A stretch of 64,000 nucleotides of DNA from Heptranchias perlo. Its lineage: Eukaryota. The stretch spans positions 16,926,001 through 16,990,000 of the forward strand of contig NC_090341.1 of NCBI RefSeq assembly GCF_035084215.1. Reading direction: 5' to 3'. Below, piece after piece: positions 553 to 58,100 of this stretch. The notes under the pieces are model-generated. The model had not been told where the DNA came from, ran no database searches, and saw only the letters and a program-made list of their open reading frames with translations. The translations under genes were made by a program, and so were the position numbers. Position 1 is the stretch's first letter, and each line of letters opens with the position of its first letter.

Positions 553-3489
553 AAAGGCTCACTGGTGCTGTGGGGGAGGGTTTAAACTAATTTGGCAGGG
601 AGGTGGGCACCAGGATGTATCATTAGAAAGGAGAAATAAGGTGCACACAGGATTGGGAGAGACAGATAGCACTAGAGTAAGAAATAGTACAGTATTAGGT
701 GGGATCAGACTGAGCGAATACAAGAAGGCCTAAGATAGGTTTAGACTGCATGTGTGTAAACGCACGAAGCGTGGTAAATAAAGTTGGCGAGCTGCAGGTG
801 CAAATAGGAATATGATATAGGTGGCGATAATGGAGACCTGGCTCAAAAAAGGGAAGGATTGGGTACTAAATATTCCTGGATGCAAGATGTTCAGGAAAGA
901 TAGGGAAGGAAAGGAGTGTGGGGGTGGTGGTGGCAGTATTGATTAAGGAGAATATTGCAGTGCTGGAGAGAGAGGATGTCCTTGAAGGGTTAAGGACAGA
1001 ATCTACTTGATTAGAGTTAAGAAACAATCGAGGCGCCATTAACTGCTGGGTGTATTCTATAGGCCACCAGTTAGTGAGAAGGATATAGAGGAGCAAATTT
1101 GCAGGGAAATTACAGGGAGCCAGAGAGTAGTGGTCGGCGGTTTCAACTCTCCTAACTGGGATAGTAATAGTGTAAAGGGCAAAGTGGGGGAGGAATTTCT
1201 ATAGTGTGTTCAGGAAAACTTTCTTGATCAGTATGTTTCCAGTCCAACTGGAAAAGAGGCATTGCTGGATCTAGTTCTGGGGAATGAAGCGGAGCAGGTG
1301 TCAGTGGGGGAACATTTAGAGAACAATGATCATAGTATCGTAAGGTTTAGATTAGTTATGGAAAAGGACAAGGAGCAATCTAGAGTAAAAAATACTTAAT
1401 TGGAGGAGGGCCAATTTCAGTGGGTTGAGAACGGATCTGGCTTAGTAAATTGGAATCAAAGATTGGCAGGCAAAATGGTAATTGAGAAGATAGTTCTGGT
1501 ACAGTCTAGGTACATTCCCACAAGGGAGAAAGGTAGAGCTCCCTGGATGATGAAAGAGATAGAGAGTAAGATGCAGCAGAAAAAGGGGGCATATGACAGA
1601 TGTCAGGGTGATAATACAAGTGAGAACCAGGCTGAATATAGAAAGTACAGAGGAGAAATGAAAAGGGAAATAAGAGGGGCAAAGATTATGAGAATAGACT
1701 GGTGGCTAACATAAAAGGGAATCTAAAAGTCTTCCAGTATATAAATAGTAAACGGGTAATAAGAGGAGGGGTGGGGCCGATTAGGGACCAAAAAGGAGAT
1801 CTACGCATGGAGGCAGAAGGCATGGCTGAGGCACTAAACGAGTACTTTTCATCTGTCTTTACCAAGGAAGATGCTGCCAAAGTCACAGTAAAAGAGGAGT
1901 TTGGTTGAGATACTGGATGGGCTAAAAATTGATAAACAGGAGGTACTAGAAAGGCTGGCTGTACTTAAAGTAGATAAATCACCCGGTCCAGATGGGATGT
2001 ATCCTTGGTTGCTGAGGGAAGCACGGGTGGAAATTGCAGAGGTGCTGGCCATAATCTTCTAAACCTCCTTAGATATGGGGGTGGTGCCAGAGGACTGGAC
2101 AATTGCAAATGTTTCATCCTTGTTCAAAAAAGGGTGTAAGGATAAACACGGCAACTGCAGGCCAGTCAGTTTAACCTCAGTGGGAAACTTTTAGAAATGA
2201 TCCAGGACAAAATTAGTGGATTAATAAAGGAAAGCCAGCATCGATTTGTTAAAGGCAAATAGTGTTTAATTAACTTGATAGAGTTTTTTGACGAGGTAAC
2301 AGAGAGGGTTGATGTGTATGTGGACTTTGAAAAGATGTTTGATAAAGTGCCACATAATAGGCTTGACAGAATTGAAGCCCATGGAATAAAAAGGGCAGTG
2401 GCAGCATGGATACAAAATTGGCTAAGTGACAGGAAACTAAGAGTAGTGGTGAACAGTTGTTTTTCGGACTGAAGGAAGGTATACAGTGGTTGTCCCCAGG
2501 GGTCAGTAATAGGACCACTGCTTTTTTTTATATATATTAATGACTTGGACTTGGGTGTACAGGGCACAATTTCCAAATTTGCAGATGACACAAAACTTGG
2601 AGGTGTAGTAAACAGCGAGGAGGATGGTAATAGACTTCAAGAGGACATTGACAGGCTGGTGGAATGGGCGGACACATAGCAGATGAAATTTAACGCAGAG
2701 AAGTGCAAAATGATACATTTTGGCAGGAAGAATGAGGAGAGGCAATATAAACCAAATGGTACAATTCTAAAGGGGGTACAGGATTAGAGCAACCTGGGGG
2801 TATATGTGCACAAATCTTTGTAGGCGGCAGGACAGGTTGAGAAAGCAGTTAAAAAAGCATTGGATCCTGGGCTTTATAAATAGAGGCATCGAGTACAAAA
2901 GCAAGGAAGTTATGTTGAACCTTTATAAAACACTGGTTCGGCCACAACTGGAGAATTGTGTCCAATTCTGGGCACCACACTTTTAAGAAGGATGTGAAGG
3001 CCTTAGAGGGGATGCAGAAAAGATTTACTAGAATGGTTCAGGGATGAGGGACTTCAGTTACATGGATAGACTGGAGAAGCTGGGGTAGTTCTCCTTAGAA
3101 CAGAGAAGGTTGAGAGGAGATTTGATAGAAATGTTCAAAATCATGAAGGGTTTAGATAAAGTAAATAAAGAGAAATTGTTCCCATTGGCGGAAGGGTCAA
3201 GAACCAGAGGACGCAGATTTAAGGTGACTGGCAAAAGAACCAAAGGCAACATGAGGAAAAACTTTTTTACGCAGCGAGTAGTTATGATCTGGAATGGTCA
3301 ACCTGAAAGGGTGGTGGAAGCAGATGCAATCGTAGCTTTCAAAAAGCAATTGGATAAATAATTGAAGGGAAATATTTTCAGGGCTTCCGGGAAAGTACAG
3401 AGGAATGGGACTAATTGGATTGCTCTGAGAGTCGGCACGGGCTCGATGGGCCGAATAGCCGCCTCCTGTGCTGTAACCATTCTATGATT
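553..3489 (+). mobile_element. CR1 LINE, 5'-truncated and degenerate (ORF1 end, ORF2 APE-RT, 3' tail)
   Basis: ORF1 end AVGEGLN* at 567-590. Frameshifted ORF2 pieces: CVNARS, FDKVPH, FADDTK, LYKTLVRPQLE, RGDLIEMFK. CR1-type 3' tail CATTCTATGATT near 3480. Confidence 0.93.
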
Positions 3490-8936: not shown

Positions 8937-9067
8937 TCTAACCTCAACTAACTCACAAGCCTGTTTGTTTTTTAAAAAATCCAGTTATCATAGAATCATA
9001 GAAGTTACAACATGGAAACAGGCCCTTCGGCCCAACATGTCCATGTCGCCCAGTTTATACCACTAAG

Positions 9068-12025
9068 CTAGTCCCAATTGCCTGCACTTGGCCCATATCC
9101 CTCTATATCCATCTTACCCATGTAACTGTCCAAATGCTTTTTAAAAGACAAAATTGTACCCGCCTCTACTACTGCCTCTGGCAGCTCGTTCCAGACACTC
9201 ACCACCCTTTGAGTGAAAAAATTGCCCCTCTGGACCCTTTTGTATCTCTCCCCTCTCACCTTAAATCTATGCCCCCTCGTTATAGACTCCCCTACCTTTG
9301 GGAAAAGATTTTGACTATCGACCTTATCTATGCCCCTCATTATTTTATAGACTTCGATAAGATCACCCCTTAACCTCCTACTCTCCAGGGAAAAAAGTCC
9401 CAGTCTGTCTAACCTCTCCCTGTAAGTCAAACCATCAAGTCCCGGTAGCATACCAGTAAATCTTTTCTGCACTCTTTCTAGTTTAATAATATCCTTTCTA
9501 TAATAGGGTGACCAGAACTGTACACAGTACTCCAAGTGTGGCCTCACGAATGCCCTGTACAACTTCAACAAGACATCCCAACTCCTGCATTCAATGTTCT
9601 GACCAATGAAACCAAGCATGCCGAATGCCTTCTTCACCACCCTATCCACCTGTGACTCCACTTTCAAGGAGCTATGAATCTGTACTCCTAGATCTCTTTG
9701 TTCTATAACTCTCCCCAACGCCCTACCATTAACGGAGTAGGTCCTGGCCCGATTCGATCTACCAAAATGCATCACCTCACATTTATCTAAATTAAACTCC
9801 ATCTGCCATTCATCGGCCCACTGGCCCAATTGATCAAGATCCCGTTGCAATCCCAGATAACCTTCTTCACTGTCCACAATGCCACCAATCTTTGTGTCAT
9901 CTGCAAACTTACTAACCATGCCTCCTAAATTCTCATCCAAATCATTAATATAAATAACAAATAACAGCGGACCCAGCACCGATCCCTGAGGCACACCGCT
10001 GGACACAGGCATCCAGTTTGAAAAACAACCCTCTACAACCACCCTCTGTCTTCTGTCGTCAAGCCAATTTTGTATCCAATTGGCTACCTCACCTTGGATC
10101 CCATGAGATTTAACCTTATGTAACAACCTACCATGCGGTACCTTGTCGAATGCTTTGCTGAAGTCCATGTAGACCACGTCTACTGCACAGCCCTCATCTA
10201 TCTTCTTGGTTACCCCTTCAAAAAACTCAATCAAATTCGTGAGACATGATTTTCCTCTCACAAAACCATGCTGACTGTTCCTAATTAGTCCCTGCCTCTC
10301 CAAATGCCTGTAGATCCTGTCCCTCAGAATACCCTCTAACAACTTACCCACTACACATGTCAGGCTCACTGGTCTGTAGTTCCCAGACTTTTCCCTGCCG
10401 CCCTTCTTAAACAAAGGCACAACATTTGCTACCCTCCAATCTTCAGGCACCTCACCTGTAGCGGTGGATGATTCAAATATCTCTGCTAGGGGACCCGCAA
10501 TTTCCTCCCTAACCTCCCATAACGTCCTGGGATACATTTCATCAGGTCCCGGAGATTTATCTACCTTGATGCACGTTAAGACTTCCAGCACCTCCCTCTC
10601 TGTAATATGTACACTCCTCAAGACATCACTATTTATTTCCCCAAGTTCCCTAACACCCATGCCTTTCTCAACCGTAAATACCGATGTGAAATATTCATTC
10701 AGGATCTCACCCATTTCTTGTGGTTCCGCACATAGATGACCTTGTTGATCCTTAAGAGGCCCTACTCTCTCCCTAGTTACCCTTTTGCCCTTTATGTATT
10801 TGTAGAAGCTCTTTGGATTCACCTTTGCCTGATCTGCCAAAGCAATCTCATATCCCCTTTTTGCCCTCCTGATTTCTCTCTTAACTCTACTCCGGCAATC
10901 TCTATACTCTTCAAGGGATCCACTTGATCCCAGCTGCCTATGCATGTCATATGCCTCCTTCTTCTTTTTGACCAGTGCCTCAATCTCCCGAGTCATCCAA
11001 GGTTCCCTACTTCTACCAGCCTTGCCCTTCACTTTATAAGGAATGTGCTTACCCTGAACCCTGGTTAACACACTTTTGAAAGCCTCCCACTTACCAGACG
11101 TCCCTTTGCCTGCCAACAGACTCTCCCAATCAACTTCTGAAAGTTCCTGTCTAATACCATCAAAATTGGCCTTTCCCCAATTTAGAATTTTAACTTTTGG
11201 GCCAGACCTATCCTTCTCCATAGCTATCTTAAAACTAATGGAATTATGATCACTTGTCCCAAAGTGATCCCTCACCAACACTTCTGTCACCTGCCCTTCC
11301 TTATTTCCCAAGAGGAGGTCAAGTTTTGCCCCCTCTCTCGTCGGGCCATCCACATACTGAATGAGAAATTCCTCCTGAATACACTCAACAAATTTCTCTC
11401 CATCCAAGCCCCTAATGCTATGGCTGTCCCAGTCAATGTTGGGAAAGTTAAAGTCCCCTACTATTACCACCCTATTTTTCTTGCAGCTGTCTGTAATCTC
11501 CTTACATATTTGCTCCTCAATTTCCCGTTGACTATTTGGGGGTCTGTAGTACAATCCTATCAAAGTGATCTCTCCCTTCTTATTTTTCAGTTCTACCCAT
11601 ATAGACTCAGTGGGCGAACCCTCGGATATATCCCCTCTCACTACTGCCGTGATGTTCTCCCTAATCAAGAACGCAACTCCCCCTCCTCTCTTACCTCCTG
11701 CTCTATCTTTCCTATAGCATCTGTACCCTGGAACATTGAGCTGCCAGTCCTGCCCCTCCCTTAGCCATGTTTCAGTAACAGCTATAACATCCCAGTCCCA
11801 TGTACCCATCCATGCCCTGAGTTCATCTGCCTTGCCCATCAGACTTCTTGCATTGAAATAAATGCAGTTTAATCTAGACTTCCCTTGGTCTTTGCCCTGC
11901 TTTCTCAGACCATCTGTCCGGTCATGTTCTGTACACTCTCCCTTACTGCCTTTTGTTTCTGTCACCATTTTATTTCCCACTGACTTCCTGCATCGGTTCC
12001 CATCCCCCTGCCACATTAGTTTAAA
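9068..12025 (-). CDS. CR1 ORF2: APE endonuclease plus reverse transcriptase (true start uncertain; frame is open back to 12172)
   Basis: YFNARSL, VTETWL, GDFNFP, SDHN (endonuclease); NYRPVSLT, DFSKAFDKVPH, GVPQGSVLGP, FADD (RT). No internal stops. Confidence 0.95.
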   Translation of the reverse strand, partial: FKLMWQGDGNRCRKSVGNKMVTETKGSKGECTEHDRTDGLRKQGKDQGKSRLNCIYFNARSLMGKADELRAWMGTWDWDVIAVTETWLREGQDWQLNVPGYRCYRKDRAGGKRGGGVAFLIRENITAVVRGDISEGSPTESIWVELKNKKGEITLIGLYYRPPNSQREIEEQICKEITDSCKKNRVVIVGDFNFPNIDWDSHSIRGLDGEKFVECIQEEFLIQYVDGPTREGAKLDLLLGNKEGQVTEVLVRDHFGTSDHNSISFKIAMEKDRSGPKVKILNWGKANFDGIRQELSEVDWESLLAGKGTSGKWEAFKSVLTRVQGKHIPYKVKGKAGRSREPWMTREIEALVKKKKEAYDMHRQLGSSGSLEEYRDCRSRVKREIRRAKRGYEIALADQAKVNPKSFYKYIKGKRVTRERVGPLKDQQGHLCAEPQEMGEILNEYFTSVFTVEKGMGVRELGEINSDVLRSVHITEREVLEVLTCIKVDKSPGPDEMYPRTLWEVREEIAGPLAEIFESSTATGEVPEDWRVANVVPLFKKGGREKSGNYRPVSLTCVVGKLLEGILRDRIYRHLERQGLIRNSQHGFVRGKSCLTNLIEFFEGVTKKIDEGCAVDVVYMDFSKAFDKVPHGRLLHKVKSHGIQGEVANWIQNWLDDRRQRVVVEGCFSNWMPVSSGVPQGSVLGPLLFVIYINDLDENLGGMVSKFADDTKIGGIVDSEEGYLGLQRDLDQLGQWADEWQMEFNLDKCEVMHFGRSNRARTYSVNGRALGRVIEQRDLGVQIHSSLKVESQVDRVVKKAFGMLGFIGQNIECRSWDVLLKLYRAFVRPHLEYCVQFWSPYYRKDIIKLERVQKRFTGMLPGLDGLTYRERLDRLGLFSLESRRLRGDLIEVYKIMRGIDKVDSQNLFPKVGESITRGHRFKVRGERYKRVQRGNFFTQRVVSVWNELPEAVVEAGTILSFKKHLDSYMGKMDIEGYGPSAGNWD

Positions 12026-12963
12026 CCCTCCCCAACAGCACTGGCAAACACTCCCCCTCGGACATTGGTTCCAGTCCCGCCCAGATGCAGACCGTCCAAT
12101 TTGTACTGGTCCCACCTCCCCCAGAACCGGTTCCAATGGCCCAGGAATTTGAATCCCTCCCTCTTGCACCATCTCTCAAGCCACGTATTCATCTTAGCTA
12201 TCCTGTCATTCCTACTCTGACTTGCCCGTGGCACTGGTAGCAATCCTGAGATTACTACCTTTGAGGTCCTACTTTTTAGTTTAACTCCTAACTCCCTAAA
12301 TTCAGCTTGTAGGACCTCATCCTGTTTTTTACCTATATCGTTGGTGCCTATATGCACCACGACAACTGGCTGTTCACCCTCCCCCTCCAGAATGTCCTGC
12401 AGCCGCTCCGAGACATCCTTGACCCTTGCACCAGGGAGGCAACATACCATCCTGGAGTCTCTGTTGCGTCCGCAGAAACGCCTGTCTATTCCCCTTACAA
12501 TCGAGTCCCCTATCACTATAACTCTGCCACTCTTTTTCCTGCCCTCCTGTGCAGCAGAGCCAGCCACGGTGCCATGAACCTGGCCACTGCCACCTTCCCG
12601 TGGTGAGCCATCTCCCCCAACAGTATCCAAAACGGTATACCTGTTTTGGAGGGAGATGACCGCAGGGGACCCCTGCACTGCCTTCCTACTCTTCCTCTGT
12701 CTGTTGGTCACCCATTCACTATCTCCCTCAGTAATTTTTATCTGCGGTGTGACCAACTCACTGAACGTGCTATCCACGACTTTCTCAGCATCGCGGATGC
12801 TCCAAAGTGAGTCCATCCGCAGCTCCAGAGCCGTCAAGCGGTCAAACAATAGCTGCAGCTGGACACACTTCCCGCAGGTGAAGGAATCAGGGATACAGGA
12901 AGGAGCCCTGAATTCCCACATCTCACAAGAGGAACATGACACGGCTCTGGGATCTCCTGCCAT
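12016..12963 (-). CDS. CR1 ORF1, 315 aa: zinc finger/leucine zipper plus SGNH/GDSL esterase-like domain
   Basis: CSSC...CGKC, then heptad leucines. IGDSIVR, HIGTNDI and DGLHL blocks are typical of CR1 ORF1 esterase. Confidence 0.93.
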   Translation of the reverse strand: MAGDPRAVSCSSCEMWEFRAPSCIPDSFTCGKCVQLQLLFDRLTALELRMDSLWSIRDAEKVVDSTFSELVTPQIKITEGDSEWVTNRQRKSRKAVQGSPAVISLQNRYTVLDTVGGDGSPREGGSGQVHGTVAGSAAQEGRKKSGRVIVIGDSIVRGIDRRFCGRNRDSRMVCCLPGARVKDVSERLQDILEGEGEQPVVVVHIGTNDIGKKQDEVLQAEFRELGVKLKSRTSKVVISGLLPVPRASQSRNDRIAKMNTWLERWCKREGFKFLGHWNRFWGRWDQYKLDGLHLGGTGTNVRGGVFASAVGEGLN

Positions 12964-13343: not shown

Positions 13344-16105
13344 CTAATTGCCCTCGAGAAGGTGGTGGTGAGCCGCCTTCTTGAACCGCTGCAGTCTGTG
13401 TGGTGACGGTTCTCCCACAGTGCTGTTAGGAAGGGAGTTCCAGGATTTTGACCCAGCGACAATGAAGGAACGGCGATATATTTCCAAGTCGGGATGGTGT
13501 ATGACTTGGAGGGGAACGTGCAGGTGCTGTTGTTCCCATGCGCCTGCTGCCCTTGTCCTTCTAGGTGGTAGAGGTCGCGGGTTTGGGAGGTGCTGTCGAA
13601 GAAGCCTTGGCGAGTTGCTGCAGTGCATCCTGTGGATGGTGCACACTGCAGCCACAGTGTGCCGGTGGTGAAGGGAGTGAATGTTTAGGGTGGTGGATGG
13701 GGTGCCAATCAAGCAGGCTGCTTTATCTTGGATGGTGTCGAGCTTCTTGAGTGTTGTTGGAGCTGCACTCATCCAGGCAAGTGGACAGTATTCCATCACA
13801 CTCCTGACTTGTGCCTTGTAGATGGTGGAAAGGCTTTGGGGAGTCAGGAGGTGAGTCACTCGCCGCAGAATACCCAGCCTCTGACCTGGTATTGTAGCCA
13901 CAGTATTTATGTGGCTGGTCCAGTTAAGTTTCTGGTCAATGGTGACCCCCAGGATGTTGATGGTGGGGGATTCGGCGATGGTAATGCCGTTGAATGTCAA
14001 GGGGAGGTGGTTAGACTCTCTCTTGTTGGAGATGGTCATTGCCTGGCACTTATCTGGCGCGAATGTTACTTGCCACTTATGAGCCCAAGCCTGGATGTTG
14101 TCCAGGTCTTGCTGCATGCGGGCTCGGACTGCTTCATTATCTGAGGGGTTGCGAATGGAACTGAACACTGTGCAGTCATCAGCGAACATCCCCATTTCTG
14201 ACCTTATGGTGGAGGGAAGGTCATTGATGAAGCAGCTGAAGATGGTTGGGCCAAGGACACTGCCCTGAGGAACTCCTGCAGCAATGCCCTGGGGCTGAGA
14301 TGATTGGCCTCCAACAACCACTACCATCTTCCTTTGTGCCAGGTATGACTCCAGCCACTGGAGAGTTTTCCCCCTGATTCCCATTGACTTCAATTTTACT
14401 AGGGCTCCTTGATGCCACACTCGGTCAAATGCTGCCTTGATGTCAAGGGCAGTCACTCTCACCTCACCTCTGGAATTCAGCTCTTTTGTCCATGTTTGGA
14501 CCAAGGCTGTAATGAGGTCTGGAGCCGAGTGGTCCTGGCGGAACCCAAACTGAGCATCGGTGAGCAGGTTATTGGTGAGTAAGTGCCGCTTGATAGCACT
14601 GTCGACGACACCTTCCATCACTTTGCTGATGATTGAGAATAGACTGATGGGGCGGTAATTGGCCGGATTGGATTTGTCCTTTTTGTGGACAGGACATACC
14701 TGGGCAATTTTCCACATTGTCGGGTAGATGCCAGTGTTGTAGCTGCACTGGAACAGCTTGGCTTGAGGCGCAGCTAGTTCTGGAGCACAAGTCTTCAGCA
14801 CTACAGCTGGGATGTTGTCGGGGCCCATAGCCTTTGCTGTATCCGGTGCACTCAGCCGTTTCTTGATATCACGCGGAGTGAATCGAATTGGCCGAAGACT
14901 GGCTTCTGTGATGGTGGGGATATCGGGAGGAGGCCGAGATGGATCATCCACTCGGCACTTCTGGCTGAAGATGGTTGCAAACGCTTCAGCCTTGTCTTTT
15001 GCACTCACGTGCTGGACTCCGCCATCATTGAGAATGGGGATGTTTGCAGAGCCTCCTCCTCCCGTTAGTTGTTTAATTGTCCACCACCATTCACGACTGG
15101 ATGTGGCAGGACTGCAGAGCTTTGATCTGATCCGTTGGTTGTGGAATCGCTTAGCTCTGTCTATAGCATGTTGCTTCCGCTGTTTAACATGCATGTAGTC
15201 CTGTGTTGTAGCTTCACCAGGTTGGCACCTCATTTTTAGGTACGCCTGGTGCTGCTCCTGGCATGCTCTTCTGCACTCCTCATTGAACCAGGGTTGATCC
15301 CCTGGCTTGTTGGTAATGGTAGAGTGAGGAATATGCCAGGCCATGAGGTTACAGATTGTGCTGGAATACAATTCTGCTGCTGCTGATGGCCCACAGCGCC
15401 TCATGGATGCCCAGTTTTGAGCTGCTGGATCCATTCTGAATCTATCCCATTTAGCATGGTGGTAGTGCCACACAACACGTTGGATGGTGTCCTCAGTGCG
15501 AAGACGGGACTTGATCTCCACGAGGACTGTGCGGTGGTCACTCCTACCAATACTGCCATGGACAGATGCATTTGCGACAGGTAGATTGGTGAGGACGAGG
15601 TCAAGTAAGTTTTTCCCTCGTGTTGGTTCGCTCACCACCTGCCGCAGGCCCACTCTGGCAGCTATGTCCTTCAGGACTCGGGCAGCTCGGTCAGTAGTGG
15701 TGCTACCAAGCCACTCTTGGTGATGGACATTGAAGTCCCCCACCCAGAGTACATTCTGTGCCCTTGCTACCCTCAGTGCTTCCTCCAAGCGGTGCTCAAC
15801 ATGGAGGAGGACTGATTCATCAGCTGAGGGAGGACGGTAGGTGGTAATCAGCAGGAGGTTTCCTTGCCCATGTTTGACCTGATGCCATGAGATTTCATGG
15901 GGTCCAGAGTCAATGTTGAGGACTCCCAGGGCACTCCCTCCTGACTGTATATCACTGTACCGCCACCTCTGGGGATGGAAGAGTCTGGGACGTTGGCTGA
16001 AAGATATGATTCTGTAAGTTTGGCTATGTCAGGCTGTTACTTGACTGGTCTGTGGGACAGCTCGCCCAATTTTGGCACAAGTCCCCAGATGTTAGTAAGG
16101 AGGAC
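13344..16105 (-). pseudogene. APE endonuclease-reverse transcriptase ORF; the 814 aa portion 13344-15788 is open, the N-terminus has a stop, a probable deletion and a frameshift
   Basis: TNIWGL, QPDI..TES, TYRPPS, GDFNVHH, SDH; NYRPISL, QFGFR, DIKAAFDRVWH, GVPQGSVLGP, FADD. Confidence 0.9.
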
Positions 16106-21225: not shown

Positions 21226-22433
21226 TTATTGATATCGCTCACGGATCAGGTGAGCATGTAGAGCCCTGGCAGACAGGGCCAGTCTTCCTTGTTGTCCCCT
21301 TGCATCTTCCTCTGGTTCCCCCTCCGTCTCCTCCCCCTCAGCCGCCGCCTCCTCCTCCTCCTCCTCAGCCTCTTCCTATGGCTCAGGGTCTTGCCGGGTG
21401 ATCGATGGCAAGGGCTGTTCCCTCATAATGGCGAGGTTGTGCAGTATGCAGCATACCACGACGAATCTTGACATCCGCTCAGCTGAGTACTGCAAGGCTC
21501 CAGCAAAATGGTCCAGGCAGTGGAAGTGTTGCTTTAGGATGCCTATGTTATGCTCAATGACGTTACATGTGGCAACATAACAATGGTTGCAGTCCCACTC
21601 TGCACTTGTGCTTGTGTTTCTGACCAGGGTCATGAGCCACCTCATGAAGGGATAGCCCTTGTCACCCAGTAGCCAGCCTTTCACTTACCGTGCCGGTTCA
21701 AAGATAGCGGGCACGTTGGACTGCCGCACAATGAAGGCCTCGTGATTGCTGCCAGGGTAGCGGGCATTGACCTGCATGATGCGCTGCAGGTGGTCGCACA
21801 CAAGCTGCACGTTCAGGAAGTGGAGCCCCTTTCTGTTTATGAAGATGGCCAAGTTGACATGTGGAGCATGCATAGCAATATGCGTGCAGTCAATGGCACC
21901 CTGCACCATGGGGAAGCCTGCAGTGCGAGCAATCGCTCGTGCTCGTTCGTGCTCCTTCTCTGCATCAAGAGGGAACGTGATGAACCTGTTGTGCATTGCG
22001 TATAGTGCCTCTCTGACCTCCCTTATACACTGCACATTGTGAGATGTTGCACAGATTGCCAGCAGAATCCTGAAAGGATGCAGAGCCGTAGAAGTTCAGC
22101 ACCACGGTTACATTCACAGCCACAGGCAATGCTGTCCTTACCCTGCTCTGCGGCTGTAGTTGTAGCTGCAGCAGGTGACAGATCTCTGTCACGACCTCTT
22201 TGGTGAACCTCAGCCATTGCATCCATTGGATGCACTGATCTTCGCTCATCTGGAGGTAAGAGTGGTGTTCCCTGAAGGCCCTTGTGGGATATGGCCTCCT
22301 GCTCTGTGCCCTGCGCCTCCCCCTCCTCCTCTTCCTCCTTCTCCCTCTCCTCGCAGCTTGAGCTGCTCTGCGTGGCATCTCTGCATGCTTCCAGTCGTGT
22401 TCTATGCCCTGCGCGCCCTAGCAGGCCACCCAA
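21226..22433 (-). pseudogene. Harbinger (HARBI1-like) DDE transposase, frameshifted
   Basis: GFPMVQGAIDCTHI, FINRKG, WLLGDKGYP, VVVCCILHNLA and an acidic C-terminus. TATTTAAAGG upstream near 22615. Confidence 0.92.
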
Positions 22434-24285
22434 GGTTGCCAGGAATCTTGTTCAAACACTGTTGTAAATTACACCAACCGTCAGGCAATACCTGCCAAAC
22501 CACTCTCAAATATACTGTAGCAACTCTCTAAGTATAGGAAGCTTCAACAAACACGTCCTATTCTGCCAGAAGCAATAATCCAGCAACTAACCTGCAACAC
22601 CTGCATGATCCCTTTAAATAGCACTGGTGGGGTGGTCCTCTCAGACATGTTCAGTTGTTCGTGGTTAAGACAATGCATTGAGTGGAGCATTAAATGCCAA
22701 AATAGTGTCTCTCATTTTAAATCAGCATCGCACACTGATCTAACACATTACATTACTTTACATTCTGCCAGCGTTTGTTATTTGCACGTTCGTGAAACCT
22801 ATAACCAAAATGGTGTCCGGCACATGTAACACTAGTGCGCATTCTGGGCGCCATTTTGGAACTTCGGGAGGCCGCGTAGCACCGAAACAATGGCCACTAC
22901 AAGGCCCAATTTCTAGACCTATGTCTCTTAGTTAATTGAATTCCGTTTATTGTATACACGTGCTGCATTTTTTTTAATGACATTAGAATTTCTCCTAACC
23001 CCGTCCTTTGTTCTTTTGACTATTTTAAATCCGTGCCCTCTACCTACTAACTCACCAACCAGCATTTCTGGGTGGTTACGAACATGATTTTATTTTCAGA
23101 GCGCTGTGCTGCTTGAAAATGAGGGTTGCCAGGTCCAGTTTCCTTTAACTGTAGTGCTACAATTTGACAAATAAAAAAACCTCGTGCACTTTTTGACGTT
23201 TAAAATAACCCCTATACATGCACCTTTTTTTTTAGGAAATCATGAAAAAAGAATTCAGGAGTTTTTCTTGTCAGATTGTAGGAGATCAAGCAACTTTAGT
23301 GTCAAGTGGGAACAGATTGTACATTAACTGGCTCCGTCTGCTATAATAAATAGCGTTATTAGAACTCATACTAGATTACCCTGACAACAAATGTGGCATT
23401 TTATCATTATTTCCCTAACTTTCTATAGGCTTATCTGGCTAATTTTAAGGATACAGCCTTGCTCCCAGGCTAATTTTAGACCATATCGTTTTAGTTCAAC
23501 CTGTAATAACTCAATATTTTTAAACTGCAGTTGCCACATTACAAACTTGTTGTAGTTTCTTGCACTCTTCCCCTAATAATTGTGGTTGATTGTGCAACCA
23601 AACAAAAGTATAATCATGCTACAAACATCATGGAGTAAGATGGACAAATCAGATTATTAATGCAATTAGGTGCCTGCTCAGATTTTGTTTACAGGCTTGC
23701 TGGAGTCTCCACACTACTTGTACTATGACAGTAGCAAAACTTAAATTGTTCATGTATCATGCAGAGGTTGAGTTTATGGAAGGTCTAAGAGAAAATGAAT
23801 TTCTAGATGAACCAGACCATGCAAGGACTGAGCAGTCTATCTTATTTGCGTGGCATATTTTACTTCAAGCAATGAAAGGAAAATTTTGCTGCAGCTGATT
23901 GTGAATGTAAATTAGAAGATGAACAACATGAATGATTTATTCAATAGTAAGAGAACAGCTGAGAGAAGGACTGAAAGAACTTGCATCTATATGTGGAAGC
24001 TTGTTTAAAGTGGTGAGAAATAAGCTATTGCAGAGAATTGGTTAAAAGCTCAAGCAAGTCCAGAAATGCAGCAATATGAAATGGCAGAAAAATGCCCTTG
24101 GTATTCCAGCAGCTTTGTATTTGAGGTTCAAACAATCGCGAATATTTGGTAACCTTGCAGTAAATGGAATAAAATAAGATCCAGTCGCCTTAAAATGGAG
24201 GGACTGCTATCATTTAAGTCTTATGACAAGAGTAGATGTATTTTTAAACACTATTAATAAAATAACCTTCACTTGGCCCACTTAC

Positions 24286-47908: not shown

Positions 47909-50671
47909 ATGGTTAAAAAAAGAATGATTCACTTAGGACTCAAAATGTGTTATAAAGCTAAATTTTAGGAACTTGTCGTATGCACATTACAGGGAGGACA
48001 TTTAAGGGGTGACAAGATTCATATCTATAAGATAATTTGGGAGTTAATGATACAGAGATTAGCTGCTTCTTTCAATGGTGATGGGTTCAAATTATACCTC
48101 CAAAAGCCAAGCTGTTGTTGAAGAGTGGCATAATCTAATCTAGTTAATGCTGCCTCAGTGTTTTCCTTCACAACGGGCCTCAATATTTTTGGCATGTTAA
48201 ACTGTGGGGAGATATAAAATTAATCATAGTACAGAAACAGAGACTGAATGACAAGTAGGTTTCATTTCTGAGTGTTGGGGACCACTGGAGATTTTTATTT
48301 ATTTATATTTTATAATGGACTGGAACAGTTTGATGGACACAGTGGTCTTTCCTTATTAGCAAACATATTCATGGCTCATGTTTCAGCACATAATTATAAC
48401 TTGTTACTAGATCTTAATTTGCTTAAAATGAGTATTTGCTCCACTTCTGTCATGCACTGATTGCTATTGATAAGCTGAATGTAGTGTAAATTGAATTTGC
48501 TGATGTTTTGCTACAGTGTTGCTGGGATGTGGTGGTGAGTTAATGTGTTGGTGGTCCTCTGCTAAGTAAGGTAACATTAAGTAGAAATCAGAAAAATATC
48601 TGCATTAGTGAAAACCAACGTGATTGAAATTGATATATGGCTTATCCTCTACTTCTGGTGAAAAGGAATAGAGTCTCAGGATTATAATTTTTTTAAGACT
48701 GTTGTTGCTATATTAAGCCATGTTTTTTAACATTTTTAAACTTTTTTTGCTGTAAAAGCTAAAGATATCTCACTCTTGAAAACTTGATGAAAATGATCAT
48801 CTTGATCATCCGGATTCTGTTTTGAAGACTAATTTGCAGTAGGAGCGGTCAAAACTGGGATGATGAACCTGAGTTTCCCTTCACAGGGAAAGTCAAGATA
48901 GGGCTGGATTTTTCAAACTTTGAAAGTGGACAGATAACCTGCAGTGGCCTCTTTCAGTCCTGCGTCTTATACATTCCTACTTTCCTAAGTCTAGGGATGA
49001 CTTCACAAACATTTCAAAAAACAGGTCTCTACTGGGCATTAGATGAAATATGTACTGCAGCATGTGCTATATCTGCTATAATGTAATTTTATTAAAAGGT
49101 TAAACATTTTTGGCAGAAACAATCAATTGCACAGTAATGTCACTGCATCCTGATCAAGTTATTGTGTCTATTTTTGTTTTGAAACCTGACTGAGTATTAA
49201 AAGAATTTTACTAAGTGGGTGATGTCCCTTTTTGCCATCTGAATATATATATATATATATATATATTTAAATATACACACATACATAGAGAGTGAACCCC
49301 AGGTGAAGGCCAAAGCTGAACAGATAAGATGAACTAAGTGAAGAAGCAGTAGTAAGGTAATGTCAAACATAGGTTTTAAAACCCTGCAGACTTTAGTGGA
49401 AGACTGAAGGAGGTAAGGAGCTCCAGAACTTTGAGGTCATGTAAGTCATGAGCTGGAGTAGAAGACATTGCAATGATTTCAATATACCAAGGATTCAGGG
49501 AGGAGGAAACACATGTAGGGTCACATATTTGGAGCTTAAGAAGGACAAGAGAAGAAAGTTCAGAGGAACAATGGCCATAGTAGCATTGATTTTGAATTAG
49601 AACAGTTTGGAGGCTAAAGATGACAGAATGATCACTTAACAGATAATAGTCATTTTCTTGAATCCTATTCAGAAATGTGAGAGGTGTTAGAATAACCAAT
49701 CCAGATGTGGAAACAGTATTCAAGTCATTCAGACTTGGGTTTCATAGGCAGTTAATAATTGTTGAGGGGAAAAAGTAGTTTTCATTTACTAACTCTGTCA
49801 CAGCTAGAAATCAATACTGTTGTTTCCACAATTATACAATTATAAAGTGTTCCATGAATCATACAAAAGATAACTTTGCACAATGATTTATCGAACCAAA
49901 CATATCTTTGGGGAAAAAAATCCACATTATTTGTTGTGACATTCTTCCTTCTTTGATTGCAAAGAAACAAGTTTCACACAACACAGAAGTGACAATCTCA
50001 AAATTAAAATGAAACGAAAGATGAATGGGGTAACCGATGATTGAACAAGTGTTTATATTTCTGGTAACTTTCAAACTACTGCCGCTATTATCGCCTGCGC
50101 ACTGCACTACTGTCACGCCTATTTCTTCTCACTTAGATCACAATAAAAACGTAACAGGATATCACATAGTTTATAATGCGAATTCTACCAGTTTTCATAC
50201 AAAAATAATGTAACTCAGCCGCTGCTCTGTGAATGAAAACCAGATTGTTTTTAAACCCCAGCCTCTCTGGGTACGTAATGGAAAAATCTCAGTCACTTTC
50301 AGATCAACTTGAACCTCTCCCGCAGACTACTTTTTTACTTAACAGCCTCTGTTGTTTTCCGTGCTTAACAAATGTGAAAGGATGAACATGAGACAAATAG
50401 GTTAATCGATCAAATCGTACGCAGTAAATACATACCATTGGAGGCAAAGCGAAAAATAACGCAGATAGGGATTAAATTAGGAGAATGTATATTATCCAGT
50501 AAAAAGTTTTTTAAAAAGTCAATTTATAAAGGAGTGTATTATACTCAAGTTCAACTTTCGTGTTTAACGTTTTATGAGACATTTTAAGATAACGGATCCT
50601 GAGCTGAACCCTGTTGGTAAACTCTTTTTTTCTTTTGGTAAGTGAAAATATGACTCTCTGGGTCGGGTGCT

Positions 50672-51852
50672 CCTTGCCGGGAGTGCCCCCCTGCCCGGGA
50701 GAGTGCCCCCCTGCCTGGGAGAGCGCCCCTTCCCGGGAGAGCGCCCACTGCCCGGGACTGTGCCCCTCTGCCCGGGAGAGCGCCCCCCTGCCTGGGAGTG
50801 TGCCCCCCTGCCCGGGAGTGTGCCCCCTGCCCAGGAGAGCACCCCCCCGCCTGGGAGAGCGCCCCCCCCGCCTGGGAGAGCGCCCCCCCCGCCTGGGAGA
50901 GCGCCCCCCCGCCCGGGAGAGCGCCCCCCTGCCCGGGAGTGTGCCCCTGCCTGGGAGTGCCCCCCTGCCCGGGAGAGTGCCCCCCTGCCCGGGAGAGTGC
51001 CCCCTGCCCGGGAGAGTGCCCCCTGCCCGGGAGAGTGCCGCACTCACACCCCCTGCCCGGGAGAGTGCCCCCTTGCCCAGGAGAGTGCCGCACTCACACC
51101 CCCTGCCCGGGAGAGTGCCCACTTGCCCGGGAGAGTGCCGCACTCACACCCCCTGCCCGGGAGAGTGCCCCCCGTCCGGGAGAGAGCCGCACTCAAACCC
51201 CCTGCCCGGGAGAGTGCCCCCCTGTCCGGGAGAGTGCCGCGCTCACACCCCCTGCCCGGGAGAGTGCCGCACTCACACCCCCTGCCCGGGAGAGTGCCCC
51301 CCTGTCCGGGAGAGAGCCGCACTCACACCCCCTGCCCGGGAGAGTGCCCCCTGCCCGGGAGAGTGCCGCGCTCACACCCCCTGCCCGGGAGAGTGCCGCG
51401 CTCACACCCCCTGCCCGGGAGAGTGCCGCGCTCACACCCCCTGCCCGGGAGAGTGCCCCCTGCCCGGGAGAGTGCCACACTCACACCCCCTGCCCGGGAG
51501 AGTGCCCCCTGCCCGGGAGAGTGCCCCCCTGTCCGGGAGAGTGCCACACTCACACCCCCTGCCCGGGAGAGTGCCCCCCTGTCCGGGAGAGTGCCACACT
51601 CACACCCCCTGCCCGGGAGAGTGCCCCCCTGTCCGGGAGAGAGCCCCACTCACACCCTCTGCCCGGGAGAGTGCCCCCCTGCCCGGGAGAGAGCCCCACT
51701 CACACCCTCTGCCCGGGAGAGTGCCCCCCTGCCCGGGAGAGAGCCCCACTCACACCCCCTGCCCGGGAGAGAGCCCCACTCACACCCCCTGCCCGGGAGA
51801 GAGCCCCACTCACACCCCCTGCCCGGGAGAGAGCCCCACTCACACCCTCTGC
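50672..51852. repeat. GC-rich minisatellite (core CCCTGCCCGGGAGAGTGC; about 18-20 bp and 30 bp variants)
   Basis: Dozens of tandem units; the longer units add CGCACTCACAC. Confidence 0.97.
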
Positions 51853-51889
51853 ACTCATTAATTCTCTGATAACTTTTTCACGTTGCTGT

Positions 51890-52361
51890 TCCTCCCGGTG
51901 AAGTGAGCACCTGACAGCGATTCCCACCAATCGGCGCTCCGCTGGCGCATCACGTGTCGCGGTTATGGAGCATCCCATAATCATTATTTGCAAACTGTAA
52001 TTAAACCTTCGGAATCATTAAAGTAAATGACACCTCATTCCATTCCCCCTTTTATTTTAACCACATCAACGTTCATTAATATCCCCAGTTGTTTGGCTGC
52101 AATGTCACTCTCGTGTTTTTTTTAAAATAACACATTATAGATATTTATATATTTATATATATATATATTCGGTGTGAAATGGGTGGTTAGTTGAAGCGCC
52201 ATTGTGGGTGAGAGTGTTTTTAAATGGGTTTTTTTTGGTGCATTTTTCAGTCAGTCAGTGCTGAGGAGCTGTGGTGACAGCAGCACTCAGTCACTCACCC
52301 TCCCACCCACCCACACTAACGCAGGGAACCAGCCGGCACCGTCTTAACACACACTGAACAG
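51890..52361 (+). promoter_or_regulatory. Probable Pol II promoter and non-coding first exon
   Basis: Local CpG cluster, CCAAT (51927-51931), E-box CACGTG (51951-51956), Inr-like TCAGT repeats near 52250, and donor CAG|GTAGG at 52361. Confidence 0.4.
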
Positions 52362-55129: not shown

Positions 55130-58100
55130 AGTTGAGGAAGACACAGAGTGAACCTGTAACAGAGTGAAGCGCCAACAGGGTGAGGACATTGGTTGCAGAA
55201 GGGGAAGGAGGTGCTAAGTGATTTAAATCAAAGAACTTTAGACTAAGATTCCGCTGAGCGGAGCATAAAGGGAGCTGCACGAGGAATCACAGCGAGGCAA
55301 GGAGGAGTGCCGAGGGTAAGTCAGTAAGTATTTAGTTCATTGGTTAGTGTTTTTAGTTTTTAGTGGTTATTGGGGATAGAAGGAGCGGCAGCAGAGGCCC
55401 AAGAGCAGAAGGAGCGGGACCAGTGACCGAGAGCAGAACGGGACCAGTGACCGAGAGCAGAACGGGACCAGTGACCGAGAGCAGAGCGGGGATATAAAGC
55501 TGAGACCACTTCTAACACAGGCAGAAGTTTGAAAGAGTGACCACAGAGGACAGCAGGTTGGTGACTGGTTGGTGAGTAATACATTTTTTTGCTCTCTAAG
55601 CTAGGGGAGTGGTTTAAACAAGGAACCTATAACTTGCTAATACTTTATTAAATTAATAACTTAAACTAGATCAATTAGTTTAAAAAATAAACCATGTGAA
55701 TTCATTATATAAAAACTTTAAGTAAATAAATAAAACCAGGTTAGATAGAGATGGCAGTGCAGGTGGTGTGTCATAACTGCAGCATGTGGAAGTTTGTGGA
55801 GAGCAGCGTGATCCCAGGCAATCACATCTGCAGTAAATGTCTGCAACTCAAGGAACTTCGGCTCAGAGTTGTTGAGCTGGAGTCCGAGATGCAGACATTA
55901 AGATTCATCAGGGAGGGAGAGAGTTACCTGGACACTTTGAGCCAGGGGGCAGTCACACCCCTTAGGTTAGGTAGTGGTCAGGGACAGGAGGATGTGACTG
56001 CGAATCAGGCAGGTAAAGGGTCCCCAGATTCAGTGATGGAGGAGCCTCAGCCTTTGCCCTTGTCCAACAGGTACGGGGTACTTGCTACCTGTATGGATGA
56101 GAACAAAGATTGCAGGGAGGATGGGCAAATTGACCACGGCACTGTGGTACAGGAGGCCATTCAGGTGGGGGGAGTGAATAGGAATGTGATAGTGTTAGGG
56201 GATAGTATAGTCAGGGGGTTAGACACTGTTCTCTGCAGCCATGACCTGGAGCCCTGAAGGCTGTGGGATCTGCCTGGTGCCAGGGTTAAAGACAGATCCT
56301 TGTGGCTGGAAAAAAACTTGAAGCCTGAGGGGGAGGATCCAGTTGTTGTGGTCCACGTAGGTACCAACGAAATAGGTAGAACTAGGAATGAGGTTCTGCT
56401 GAGGGAGTTTGAGGAGCTAGGGTCCAAATTAAAAAGTAGAACCTCAAAGGTAATAATCTCTGGATTACTACCTGAGCCATGCACAAATTGGCAGAGGGAC
56501 AAACAGATTTGATGATTAAGTGTGTGGCTGAAAGAGTGGTGTGGGAAGCAGGTGTTTCAAATAATGGGCCACTGACACCAGTACTGGGAAAGAGGGAGCT
56601 GTTTCTTTGAGATGGGCTGTTCTGAAACGGGCTGGGACCATTGTCTGGTGAATCGAATAACTAGAGAGGTAGATAGGGCTTTAAACTAATAAGAATGGGG
56701 GAGAGTTCAGGTATGGGTAAATTTATAAGTCTAAAGAGAAAAGTTAAGGCTGTAGGGCAGAGTAGCGATTTGGGTAAAAACAAGCAGAGTGTGTCAGGAA
56801 GGGACAGAGAGTTTAACAAAGGTGATAGGGCATTAATGACGAAGGTCACATCAGGGAAAAATAGTAAAAAGTTAAAATTAAGTGCTATATCTAAATGCAC
56901 AAAGCATTCGTAACAAGATAGATGCATTAATGGCACAAATAGAGATAAATGGATTTGATCTAGTAGCCATTACTGAGACGTGGTTGCAGGTTGACCGAGG
57001 TTGGGAATTAAATATTCCCGGGTACTTCACTTTTAGAAAAGACCGGCAAAATGGAAAAGGGGTGGGGGGGTAGCCCTGATAATAAAGGATGAGATGAAGG
57101 CAGTAGTGAGAAAGGATCTTAGCTCAGAAAATCAAGATGTAGGATCAGTATGGGTGGAGTTGAGAAATAACAAGGGGCAGAAAACACTGGTGGGAATAGT
57201 TTATAGGCCCCCTACCAGTAGTTAGTGTTGGACAGAGTGTAAATCAGAAAATTAGAGGAGCATGTAACAAGGATAATGCAATAATTGTGAATGACTTCAA
57301 TCTTCATATAGATTGGGCAAACCAAATTGGCAAAAGTAATTTGGAGGATGAGTTCATGGAATGCATTCAAGACAGTTTTCTAGAACAATATGTTGAGGAA
57401 CCAATTAGGGAACAGGCTATTTTAGATCTAGTATTGTGTAATGAGACAGGGTTAATTAGTAATCTTATGGCTAAGGATCCTCTGGGGCAGAGTGATCATA
57501 ATATGATAGAATTTCATATTGAGTTTGAGAGTGATGTAGTTAAGTCCAAAACTAGGGTCCTAAATTTAAACAAAGCCAATTACATAGGTATGAGGGCGAA
57601 TTGGCTAAGGTAGATTGGGAAATTAGATTAAATGATATGACGGTAAATAAGCAATGGCGAACATTTAAAGAAAAAATTCCTAATTCTCAATGAGTATACA
57701 TTCTCTTGAGGAATAAAAACTCTATGGGAAAAATAATCCAACCGTGGCTAACTAGAGAAGTTAAGGACAGTATTAGATTAAAAGAAGATGCTTACAATTT
57801 TGCCAAAAAGAGTAGTAAGCCTGAGGGTTTTAGAAATCAGCAAGAAATTGATATTGAATGAGAGTTAACTAGCAAGAAATATAAAAACAGATTGTAAGAG
57901 CATCTACAAATAGGTAAAAAGGAAGAGATTAGCAAAAGTAAATGTGCATCCCTTAGAGATAGAGACAGAGACAGAAGAAATTATAATAGGGAATAAGGAA
58001 ATGGCAGAGACGTTAAACAAATATTTTGTATCTGTCTTCACAGTAGAAGACGCAAAAAACATAGTGGGAATCAAGGGTCTAATGAAAGTGAGGAACTTAA

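Follow-up and report, generated by a model that had tools for sequence, protein, structure and literature searches.

A near-invariant U_UUA_AAC heptamer at the ORF1-ORF2 junction of CR1 retrotransposons as a probable programmed -1 frameshift site

A stretch of 64,000 nucleotides (nt) from the shark Heptranchias perlo (NC_090341.1, positions 16,926,001 to 16,990,000; hereafter the window) carries an intact copy of CR1, a long interspersed nuclear element (LINE), in which the second open reading frame (ORF2) lies in the -1 frame relative to the first (ORF1). This arrangement raises the question of how the endonuclease and reverse transcriptase (RT) encoded by ORF2 come to be translated. A sequence-only reading of the window had drawn attention to the heptamer T TTA AAC next to the ORF1 stop codon and suggested that these elements make an ORF1-ORF2 fusion by programmed -1 frameshifting. 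The analysis reported here supports that suggestion: the heptamer is very probably a programmed -1 frameshift site yielding such a fusion, given that its codons are without synonymous freedom and that the ORF2 ATG is not conserved, while the mechanism is one that we infer.

The motif TTTAAACTAA occurs four times in the window, against a shuffle expectation of 0.26. Three occurrences stand at the end of an ORF1, as first reported, at 581-590 (+), 12025-12016 (-) and 56680-56689 (+); the fourth, at 55684 (-), has AT-rich surroundings and is not at any ORF1 end. In the intact minus-strand copy, ORF1 (12963-12019; 315 amino acids from its Met) ends with GGT TTA AAC TAA, the heptamer occupying 12019..12025 in the ORF1 phase and the stop adjoining it at 12016..12018 (TAA here, TAG or TGA in other families). 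ORF2 was confirmed to lie in exactly the -1 frame, which reads FKLMWQ and onward for 985 codons across endonuclease and RT (9068..12025, -). Its first part is a linker without stops, which begins at the heptamer and reaches as far as the first endonuclease motif (11852..12025, -), with the Asn equivalent to N14 of the L1 endonuclease at codon 58. An ATG overlapping the stop (UAAUG; 12014..12016, -) is specific to this family, and a conserved G-rich tract, a candidate stimulator, spans positions +7 to +20 past the heptamer (11999..12012, -).

Domain and structure matches place an N-terminal Cys-pair zinc finger, a coiled coil and a C-terminal SGNH/GDSL esterase in this ORF1, which ends with Leu-Asn (PF13472, E 4e-13; ORF1 esterase of ZfL2-1, 4c1b, E 1.5e-30). 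The short 3' untranslated region (8987..9067, -) closes with CR1-type ATTCTATG repeats, so that the Cys-pair finger, the SGNH esterase, the APE endonuclease with RT and the short-repeat 3' tail known from CR1 elements with an esterase ORF1 are all present; among the ORF1 homologues with names, the closest are from sharks and rays. The second copy (581..607, +) retains heptamer, TAA and G-tract, has no AUG, and is flanked by a 5' truncation just upstream and a decayed ORF2, whereas the third (56680..56705, +) belongs to a divergent family and retains heptamer, TAA and G-tract between a decayed ORF1 and a decayed ORF2. The earlier statement that the -1 frame stays open in these copies stands (50 codons at 581 and 77 at 56680), with the restriction that the 581 copy has only about nine ORF1 codons before the heptamer. 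The triplet following the junction at 56680 is indeed ATA; to this should be added an in-frame ATG two codons later, which mostly lacks a counterpart in close relatives.

To what extent the heptamer is conserved was assessed across the genome with a pattern combining the esterase motif DG[LF]H[LF]xxxG and a stop 26 codons later, the last two codons being left unconstrained (the TRR used for the stop in the genome patterns also matches TGG). This pattern matched 12,899 ORF1 ends, against 12 for the reversed control, and 11,984 of them were able to encode [LF]N. The exact T TTA AAC was present in 11,336, both out of the 12,899 ends and out of the 11,984 [LF]N-capable ones. Because young families contribute most of the copies, 80 distinct junctions were also clustered into 28, 17 or 10 groups, using loci found by heptamer-blind search, by similarity, by the [LF]N pattern and, for ten loci forming one cluster, by the heptamer pattern. 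Among the 28 cluster representatives, the Leu codon was TTA in 26 of 26 and the Asn codon AAC in 25 of 27, and the base preceding these codons was T in 27 of 28, even though the residue it belongs to varies (Gly, the commonest, in 13 of 28); the stop was TAA in 23 and TAG in five. At nearby Leu sites (motif positions 3, 5 and 13) four codons are used at each. Free synonymous variation at the Leu-Asn codons was looked for and not seen, and the heptamer does remain nearly invariant amid varying flanks, the preceding residue and the following triplet differing by family. It is conserved at the nucleotide level, beyond the need of the protein.

Comparison of the window copy (9068-12963, -) with loci L196, L164 and L175 also revealed module swapping. 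The window's family and a young family without the AUG share 88% identity in the esterase and 46% in the endonuclease, identity stopping about 24 nt past the heptamer, while the N-terminal half of ORF1 in a sister family with AAG in place of ATG is 85% identical to the AUG-less family and 70% identical to the window's. Many families retain a -1 frame stop five codons before the heptamer, absent from the window copy (12041-12043, -), which may reflect ancestry or a limit on upstream entry into the frame.

The usual explanation for a downstream LINE ORF is termination-reinitiation, in which ribosomes restart in the -1 frame at UAAUG (SART1/influenza B type) or at a non-AUG codon (L1/calicivirus type). 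UAAUG follows the heptamer in 3,432 of the 11,336 copies, the intact window copy included, and the stop always adjoins the heptamer, as restarting would have it. A universal ORF2 ATG was sought and is not conserved: about 70% of heptamer copies have no AUG there, so that the conserved stop-start overlap of the SART1 type is lacking. The triplet after CTA varies freely (ATG, AAG, ACT, AAT, ATT, ATA, GCT or GAG, depending on the family), with no near-cognate codon at a fixed place. The UGGGA core of a termination upstream ribosome-binding site (TURBS) lies 81-97 nt before the stop in seven of nine representatives (the TURBS criterion being 40-90 nt), but it coincides with Trp-Asp or Trp-Gly codons and is missing from two distant relatives, L131 and L155.

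Families without the AUG include young and intact ones. In 292 copies of a family sister to the window's, 98% identical to it in the endonuclease, AAG replaces the ATG. In the young AUG-less family the best 40 matches are approximately 100% identical over the junction, mean identity over 3.9 kb is 98.7% (eight copies), and both ORFs are intact in eight of 20 copies, with an ORF2 of 982 codons; its -1 frame has a stop five codons before the heptamer and reaches a first Met only at codon 61, with no AUG ahead of the conserved Asn of the endonuclease. Copies of this family with a defective ORF1 have either a 5' truncation or an indel of their own. Nothing therefore points to ORF1-free amplification, and a route independent of ORF1 was rejected, the breaks being unshared between copies.

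A single-sequence search of the PDB with an ORF2 start gave no matches, and residues were numbered off a profile search alignment, in which the YxNARS motif corresponds to Asn14 of the L1 endonuclease and [ST]ETW to Glu43. The first in-frame Met falls past the N14 equivalent in eight of ten representatives and past the E43 equivalent in four of ten. In Zorro3, the endonuclease mutation N17A is reported to reduce retrotransposition to below 5% (PMC1965478), and N17 is taken to be the Asn matching the N14 equivalent of the CR1 endonuclease. Starting at an AUG would therefore leave a damaged endonuclease in most families, and since a young, intact family has no AUG before the conserved Asn, AUG reinitiation is not the general route. 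The termination-reinitiation alternative raised from the window, with its TAATG overlap, survives for the window's own family at most. Reinitiation is documented for SART1 and L1, and the calicivirus type is described as tolerating start-codon changes (PMC5972666), yet it does not predict fixed bases before the stop, and as a general explanation we consider it unlikely.

Programmed frameshifting also accounts for the phase of ORF2. Among 87 distinct heptamer copies, an endonuclease motif was located in 71 (none in the other 16). It lies in the -1 frame in 57 of these; the remaining 14 are mostly older copies with stops. The linker is about 33-97 codons long with the frame kept, and in nine representatives, picked for openness, it has no -1 frame stop, against 0-15 stops in the other two frames. 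Three features by which classical -1 sites are recognised are present: a heptamer in phase, a second ORF that is open in the -1 frame and lacks a start of its own, and conservation beyond protein need.

Does the junction extend beyond this genome? Among 120 listed ORF1 homologues, 78 of the 83 whose end lies within 34 residues of the DGxH motif end in LN, and these proteins come from sharks, a chimaera, rays, a coelacanth, a teleost, frogs, turtles and squamates. The same junction is visible in published CR1 consensus rows (PMC13343379, supplement), where, of 44 occurrences, about 17 in rows labelled CR1 have the heptamer followed by TAA, TAG or TGA; the rows, selected by motif and covered over 400 letters, provide no denominator, and most junctions, including those of birds, lie outside them. 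Within this portion of the supplement, the heptamer rows mostly continue with a G-rich tract and include ones assigned to alligator, crocodile, frog, chimaera, coelacanth, bowfin and bearded dragon, and the row ScyCan_CR1-13 has no stop at the heptamer. The junction in the row ScyCan_CR1-1a is nearly the same as that of the window, an indirect hint that the CR1 label, as against L2, applies here (PMC13343379, same portion).

Similarity searches for relatives returned none in viral, metagenome and prokaryote genome collections, and two pattern scans of viral sequences gave no matches. A scan of metagenome contigs leaving synonymous codons free produced 31 hits; the exact heptamer was found in three, each of which continues in the -1 frame into an endonuclease, and none of the other 28 does so. 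One of the three, L131, led to 150 distant esterases (17-37% identity). Of these, 101 had a usable end: FLx* in 50, LN* in 22 and LNxx* in 11, two FLN ends belonging to both FLx* and LN*. The residue x is encoded by GNN in 41 of 50 FLx* ends (background 38%), which suggested U_UUU_UUA_G, the first seven bases of which form the HIV-1 heptamer. A pattern allowing any Phe and any Leu codon retrieved two loci, both with T TTT TTA G, a stop one codon on and a -1 frame open into the endonuclease. A dipeptide control for the distant ends is confounded at registers 18-23 by an HLN motif (52 and 63 of 101). In a full-length comparison, the endonucleases of four distant elements (L131, L155, L242 and L243) are 35-41% identical to those of this genome's families, and such relatives, judged from their predicted frames, keep the layout ORF1-heptamer-ORF2.

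These lineages bear on a further explanation, namely that the bases are held by a protein constraint on Leu-Asn at the esterase C-terminus, or by another nucleotide role such as a TATA-like internal promoter, RNA packaging or a protein-binding site. LN* is near-invariant in vertebrate ORF1 proteins, Leu is retained in the distant lineage, and TTTAAA resembles a TATA variant. Unrelated [LF]N-stop sequences nevertheless use other codons (heptamer in 0 of 28), the FLx* lineage replaces Asn yet keeps a slippery heptamer, and transcription from an internal promoter would not remove the need for an AUG ahead of the endonuclease; this explanation is very unlikely. The change between U_UUA_AAC and U_UUU_UUA with the phase kept fits selection on slippage, and not protein constraint or reinitiation, neither of which predicts it.

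Several records related to the distant search deserve mention in their own right. L242 and L243 are eukaryote-type LINE junctions, with esterase and endonuclease, inside contigs of two prokaryotic metagenome-assembled genomes, most likely through binning contamination. CR1 ORF1 sequence also appears under bacterial or flatworm names or inside host gene models (P0007, P0032, P0083, P0098 and P0108), the host models being ribosomal protein S24, TMEM204 and NCOA5 isoforms; contamination, mis-annotation and exonisation are among the possible sources. In P0035, a ray gene model, the esterase runs through ...EGFKLN into the endonuclease in a single frame, probably an in-frame copy arising from an indel. 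Two distant esterases, P0109 and P0267, known as proteins alone, have GN* ends, which would be compatible with a third classical heptamer, G_GGA_AAC.

Splicing was considered as well, the junction then serving as branch point and 3' splice site joining a 5' exon to ORF2. Acceptor-like sequences are indeed found: several families have CTAAT or CTAAC then CAG, those with a TAG stop have CTAG, and the distant lineage has TTTTTTAG. The candidate AGs, however, fall in three different ORF2 phases, and the sequence upstream is G-rich with no pyrimidine tract. Spliced RNA should moreover be copied in cis, yet among 30 genomic copies found by their ORF2-side sequence none has a 5' exon: 28 join ORF1 via the heptamer, one is truncated within and one joins another CR1 ORF2. 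No splice-type joint at the site was seen among 15 of 69 joints listed from four presumed-RNA contig sets, which is uninformative either way. Splicing is highly improbable.

If the heptamer is a frameshift site, a downstream stimulator may be expected. The sequence-only reading had found no clear pseudoknot, only a G-rich tract, and the outcome for this genome's copies is the same. Within the tract, G is fixed at +7, +11, +12 and +15 in all 15 representatives, at all codon positions and in differing peptides, and the G4Hunter score exceeds the 90th percentile in 14 of 15. Quadruplexes are reported to stimulate -1 shifting at U_UUA_AAC to levels of up to about 7% (PMC3919603); a 2016 review stated that no natural productive use of a quadruplex in frameshifting was known (PMC5009743), and the title of a 2026 paper refers to quadruplex-stimulated shifting at codon repeats in human genes. 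The G-tract is put forward as a candidate stimulator, working perhaps as a protein site or as a weak quadruplex of two tiers, together with pausing at the adjacent stop. In the distant lineage, hairpins are predicted past the heptamer in L131, L242 and L243 (z -3.6, -2.7 and -2.5) and more weakly in L155 (z -1.6); the four are out of register unless alignment is structure-guided, and no covariation is claimed.

Several points weigh against programmed frameshifting. In this genome, 1,563 of the 12,899 ORF1 ends are without the exact heptamer, the exceptions examined (a subset) looking like single decayed copies, and about 20 of the 101 distant esterases have other ends. Part of the clustered sample was drawn with patterns requiring [LF]N or the heptamer, and the families are not independent, ORF1 and junction having been exchanged between them. 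L243 has a Met ahead of the endonuclease, and reinitiation is described as able to survive loss of the AUG (PMC5972666). As to the stimulator, local folds of 11 genome representatives and L133 were near shuffle level save for one 60-nt window (z -2.1), a consensus fold of five sequences gave no pairs, and a long-range duplex scan of this genome's families, in which pseudoknots were not modelled, found no conserved partner. The predicted hairpins start 10-12 nt after the heptamer, beyond the usual 5-8 nt and the 5-9 nt taken for a classical stimulator, and in most representatives the quadruplex prediction is marginal, with two tiers, while fewer quartets are reported to give less -1 shifting (PMC3919603).

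The frameshift would operate as follows. Most ribosomes would stop at the ORF1 stop and release plain ORF1p, whereas a minority would slip back one base at U_UUA_AAC just ahead of it, by tandem or stop-stalled slippage; this heptamer is listed among the most shift-prone on mammalian ribosomes (PMC5009743). The shifted ribosomes would read the linker and produce a fusion of esterase, linker, endonuclease and RT, predicted for the window copy at 315 + 983 = 1,298 amino acids. As stimulator, the distant lineage would use its predicted hairpin 10-12 nt past the heptamer and this genome's families the G-tract, and in the window's own family additional reinitiation at UAAUG may occur.

The remainder of the window includes a second APE-RT LINE ORF of a different lineage, nearly intact with 894 codons (13344-16028, -), many short 3' fragments of which are scattered through the window. 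Decayed frames at 21685-22451 (-) are transposase-like by translation and presumably resemble a Harbinger-type transposase region, and a GC-rich tandem array with long open frames on both strands lies at approximately 50500-51900.

CR1 is described as the dominant retrotransposon of many vertebrates (PMC13343379), and frameshifting, if confirmed, would have several consequences. ORF2p would carry a membrane-binding-type esterase and a coiled coil at its N-terminus, a cis-acting signal would set the ORF1p:ORF2p ratio, as happens in retroviruses, and annotations that begin CR1 ORF2 at its first Met would omit catalytic endonuclease residues. The stem-less vertebrate site would be a candidate new class of natural stimulator. 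More tentatively, and with rather less confidence than in the frameshift itself, it is possible that in esterase-ORF1 CR1s from sharks to reptiles, and probably in those of invertebrates, the endonuclease-RT arises solely within a Gag-Pol-like fusion that depends on a -1 cassette of ancient origin, the vertebrate branch having swapped the hairpin for the G-tract; the vertebrate CR1 junction would then exemplify natural shifting stimulated by a quadruplex or a protein.

How does this junction compare with known systems? Vertebrate CR1 elements with a type IV ORF1, as far as described (PMC4120745; PMC13343379; ZfL2-1 esterase, PMC3905857), share the zinc finger and esterase, the APE-RT and the repeat tail. 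The word frameshift is absent from the accessible text of PMC13343379 (including its supplement), PMC4120745 and PMC3905857, and in unhyphenated form from that of PMC2734521. A literature search returned no statement of -1 frameshifting for CR1, an early remark being possible in primary CR1 papers outside its reach. For non-LTR elements in general the idea has precedents: according to a review legend, ORF2 of the Dictyostelium APE-type LINEs TRE5-A and TRE3-A needs a -1 frameshift (PMC5911963), and the legend of Fig. 1 in PMC8557442 depicts Penelope-like elements with an ORF1 separated by a frameshift and a pseudoknot. By that review statement, the TRE elements resemble CR1 as non-LTR elements with a -1 shift and differ in clade and ORF1 type, whereas Penelope-like elements likewise join an upstream ORF to an RT ORF by a proposed shift, but have a GIY-YIG endonuclease and a pseudoknot drawn. 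In reviews, LINE ORF2 translation is attributed to reinitiation, from the UAAUG coupling of SART1 and the AUG-independent case of L1 (PMC5009743; PMC5972666). CR1, SART1 and L1 all have a bicistronic LINE RNA and UAAUG also occurs in the window's family, yet SART1 and L1 make a separate ORF2p, while in CR1 the AUG is unconserved and the bases before the stop are conserved. The closest parallel is classical -1 programmed frameshifting in coronaviruses, retroviruses and LTR retrotransposons (PMC5009743), which shares with CR1 an X_XXY_YYZ heptamer in the upstream frame and a short overlap. There too a structural-type ORF1 precedes a polymerase ORF that is joined to it by a -1 shift, and both U_UUA_AAC and U_UUU_UUA are classical heptamers; CR1 differs in being a non-LTR element without a protease, in having the stop adjoin the heptamer and, in this genome, in presenting a G-tract where a pseudoknot or stem would otherwise stand.

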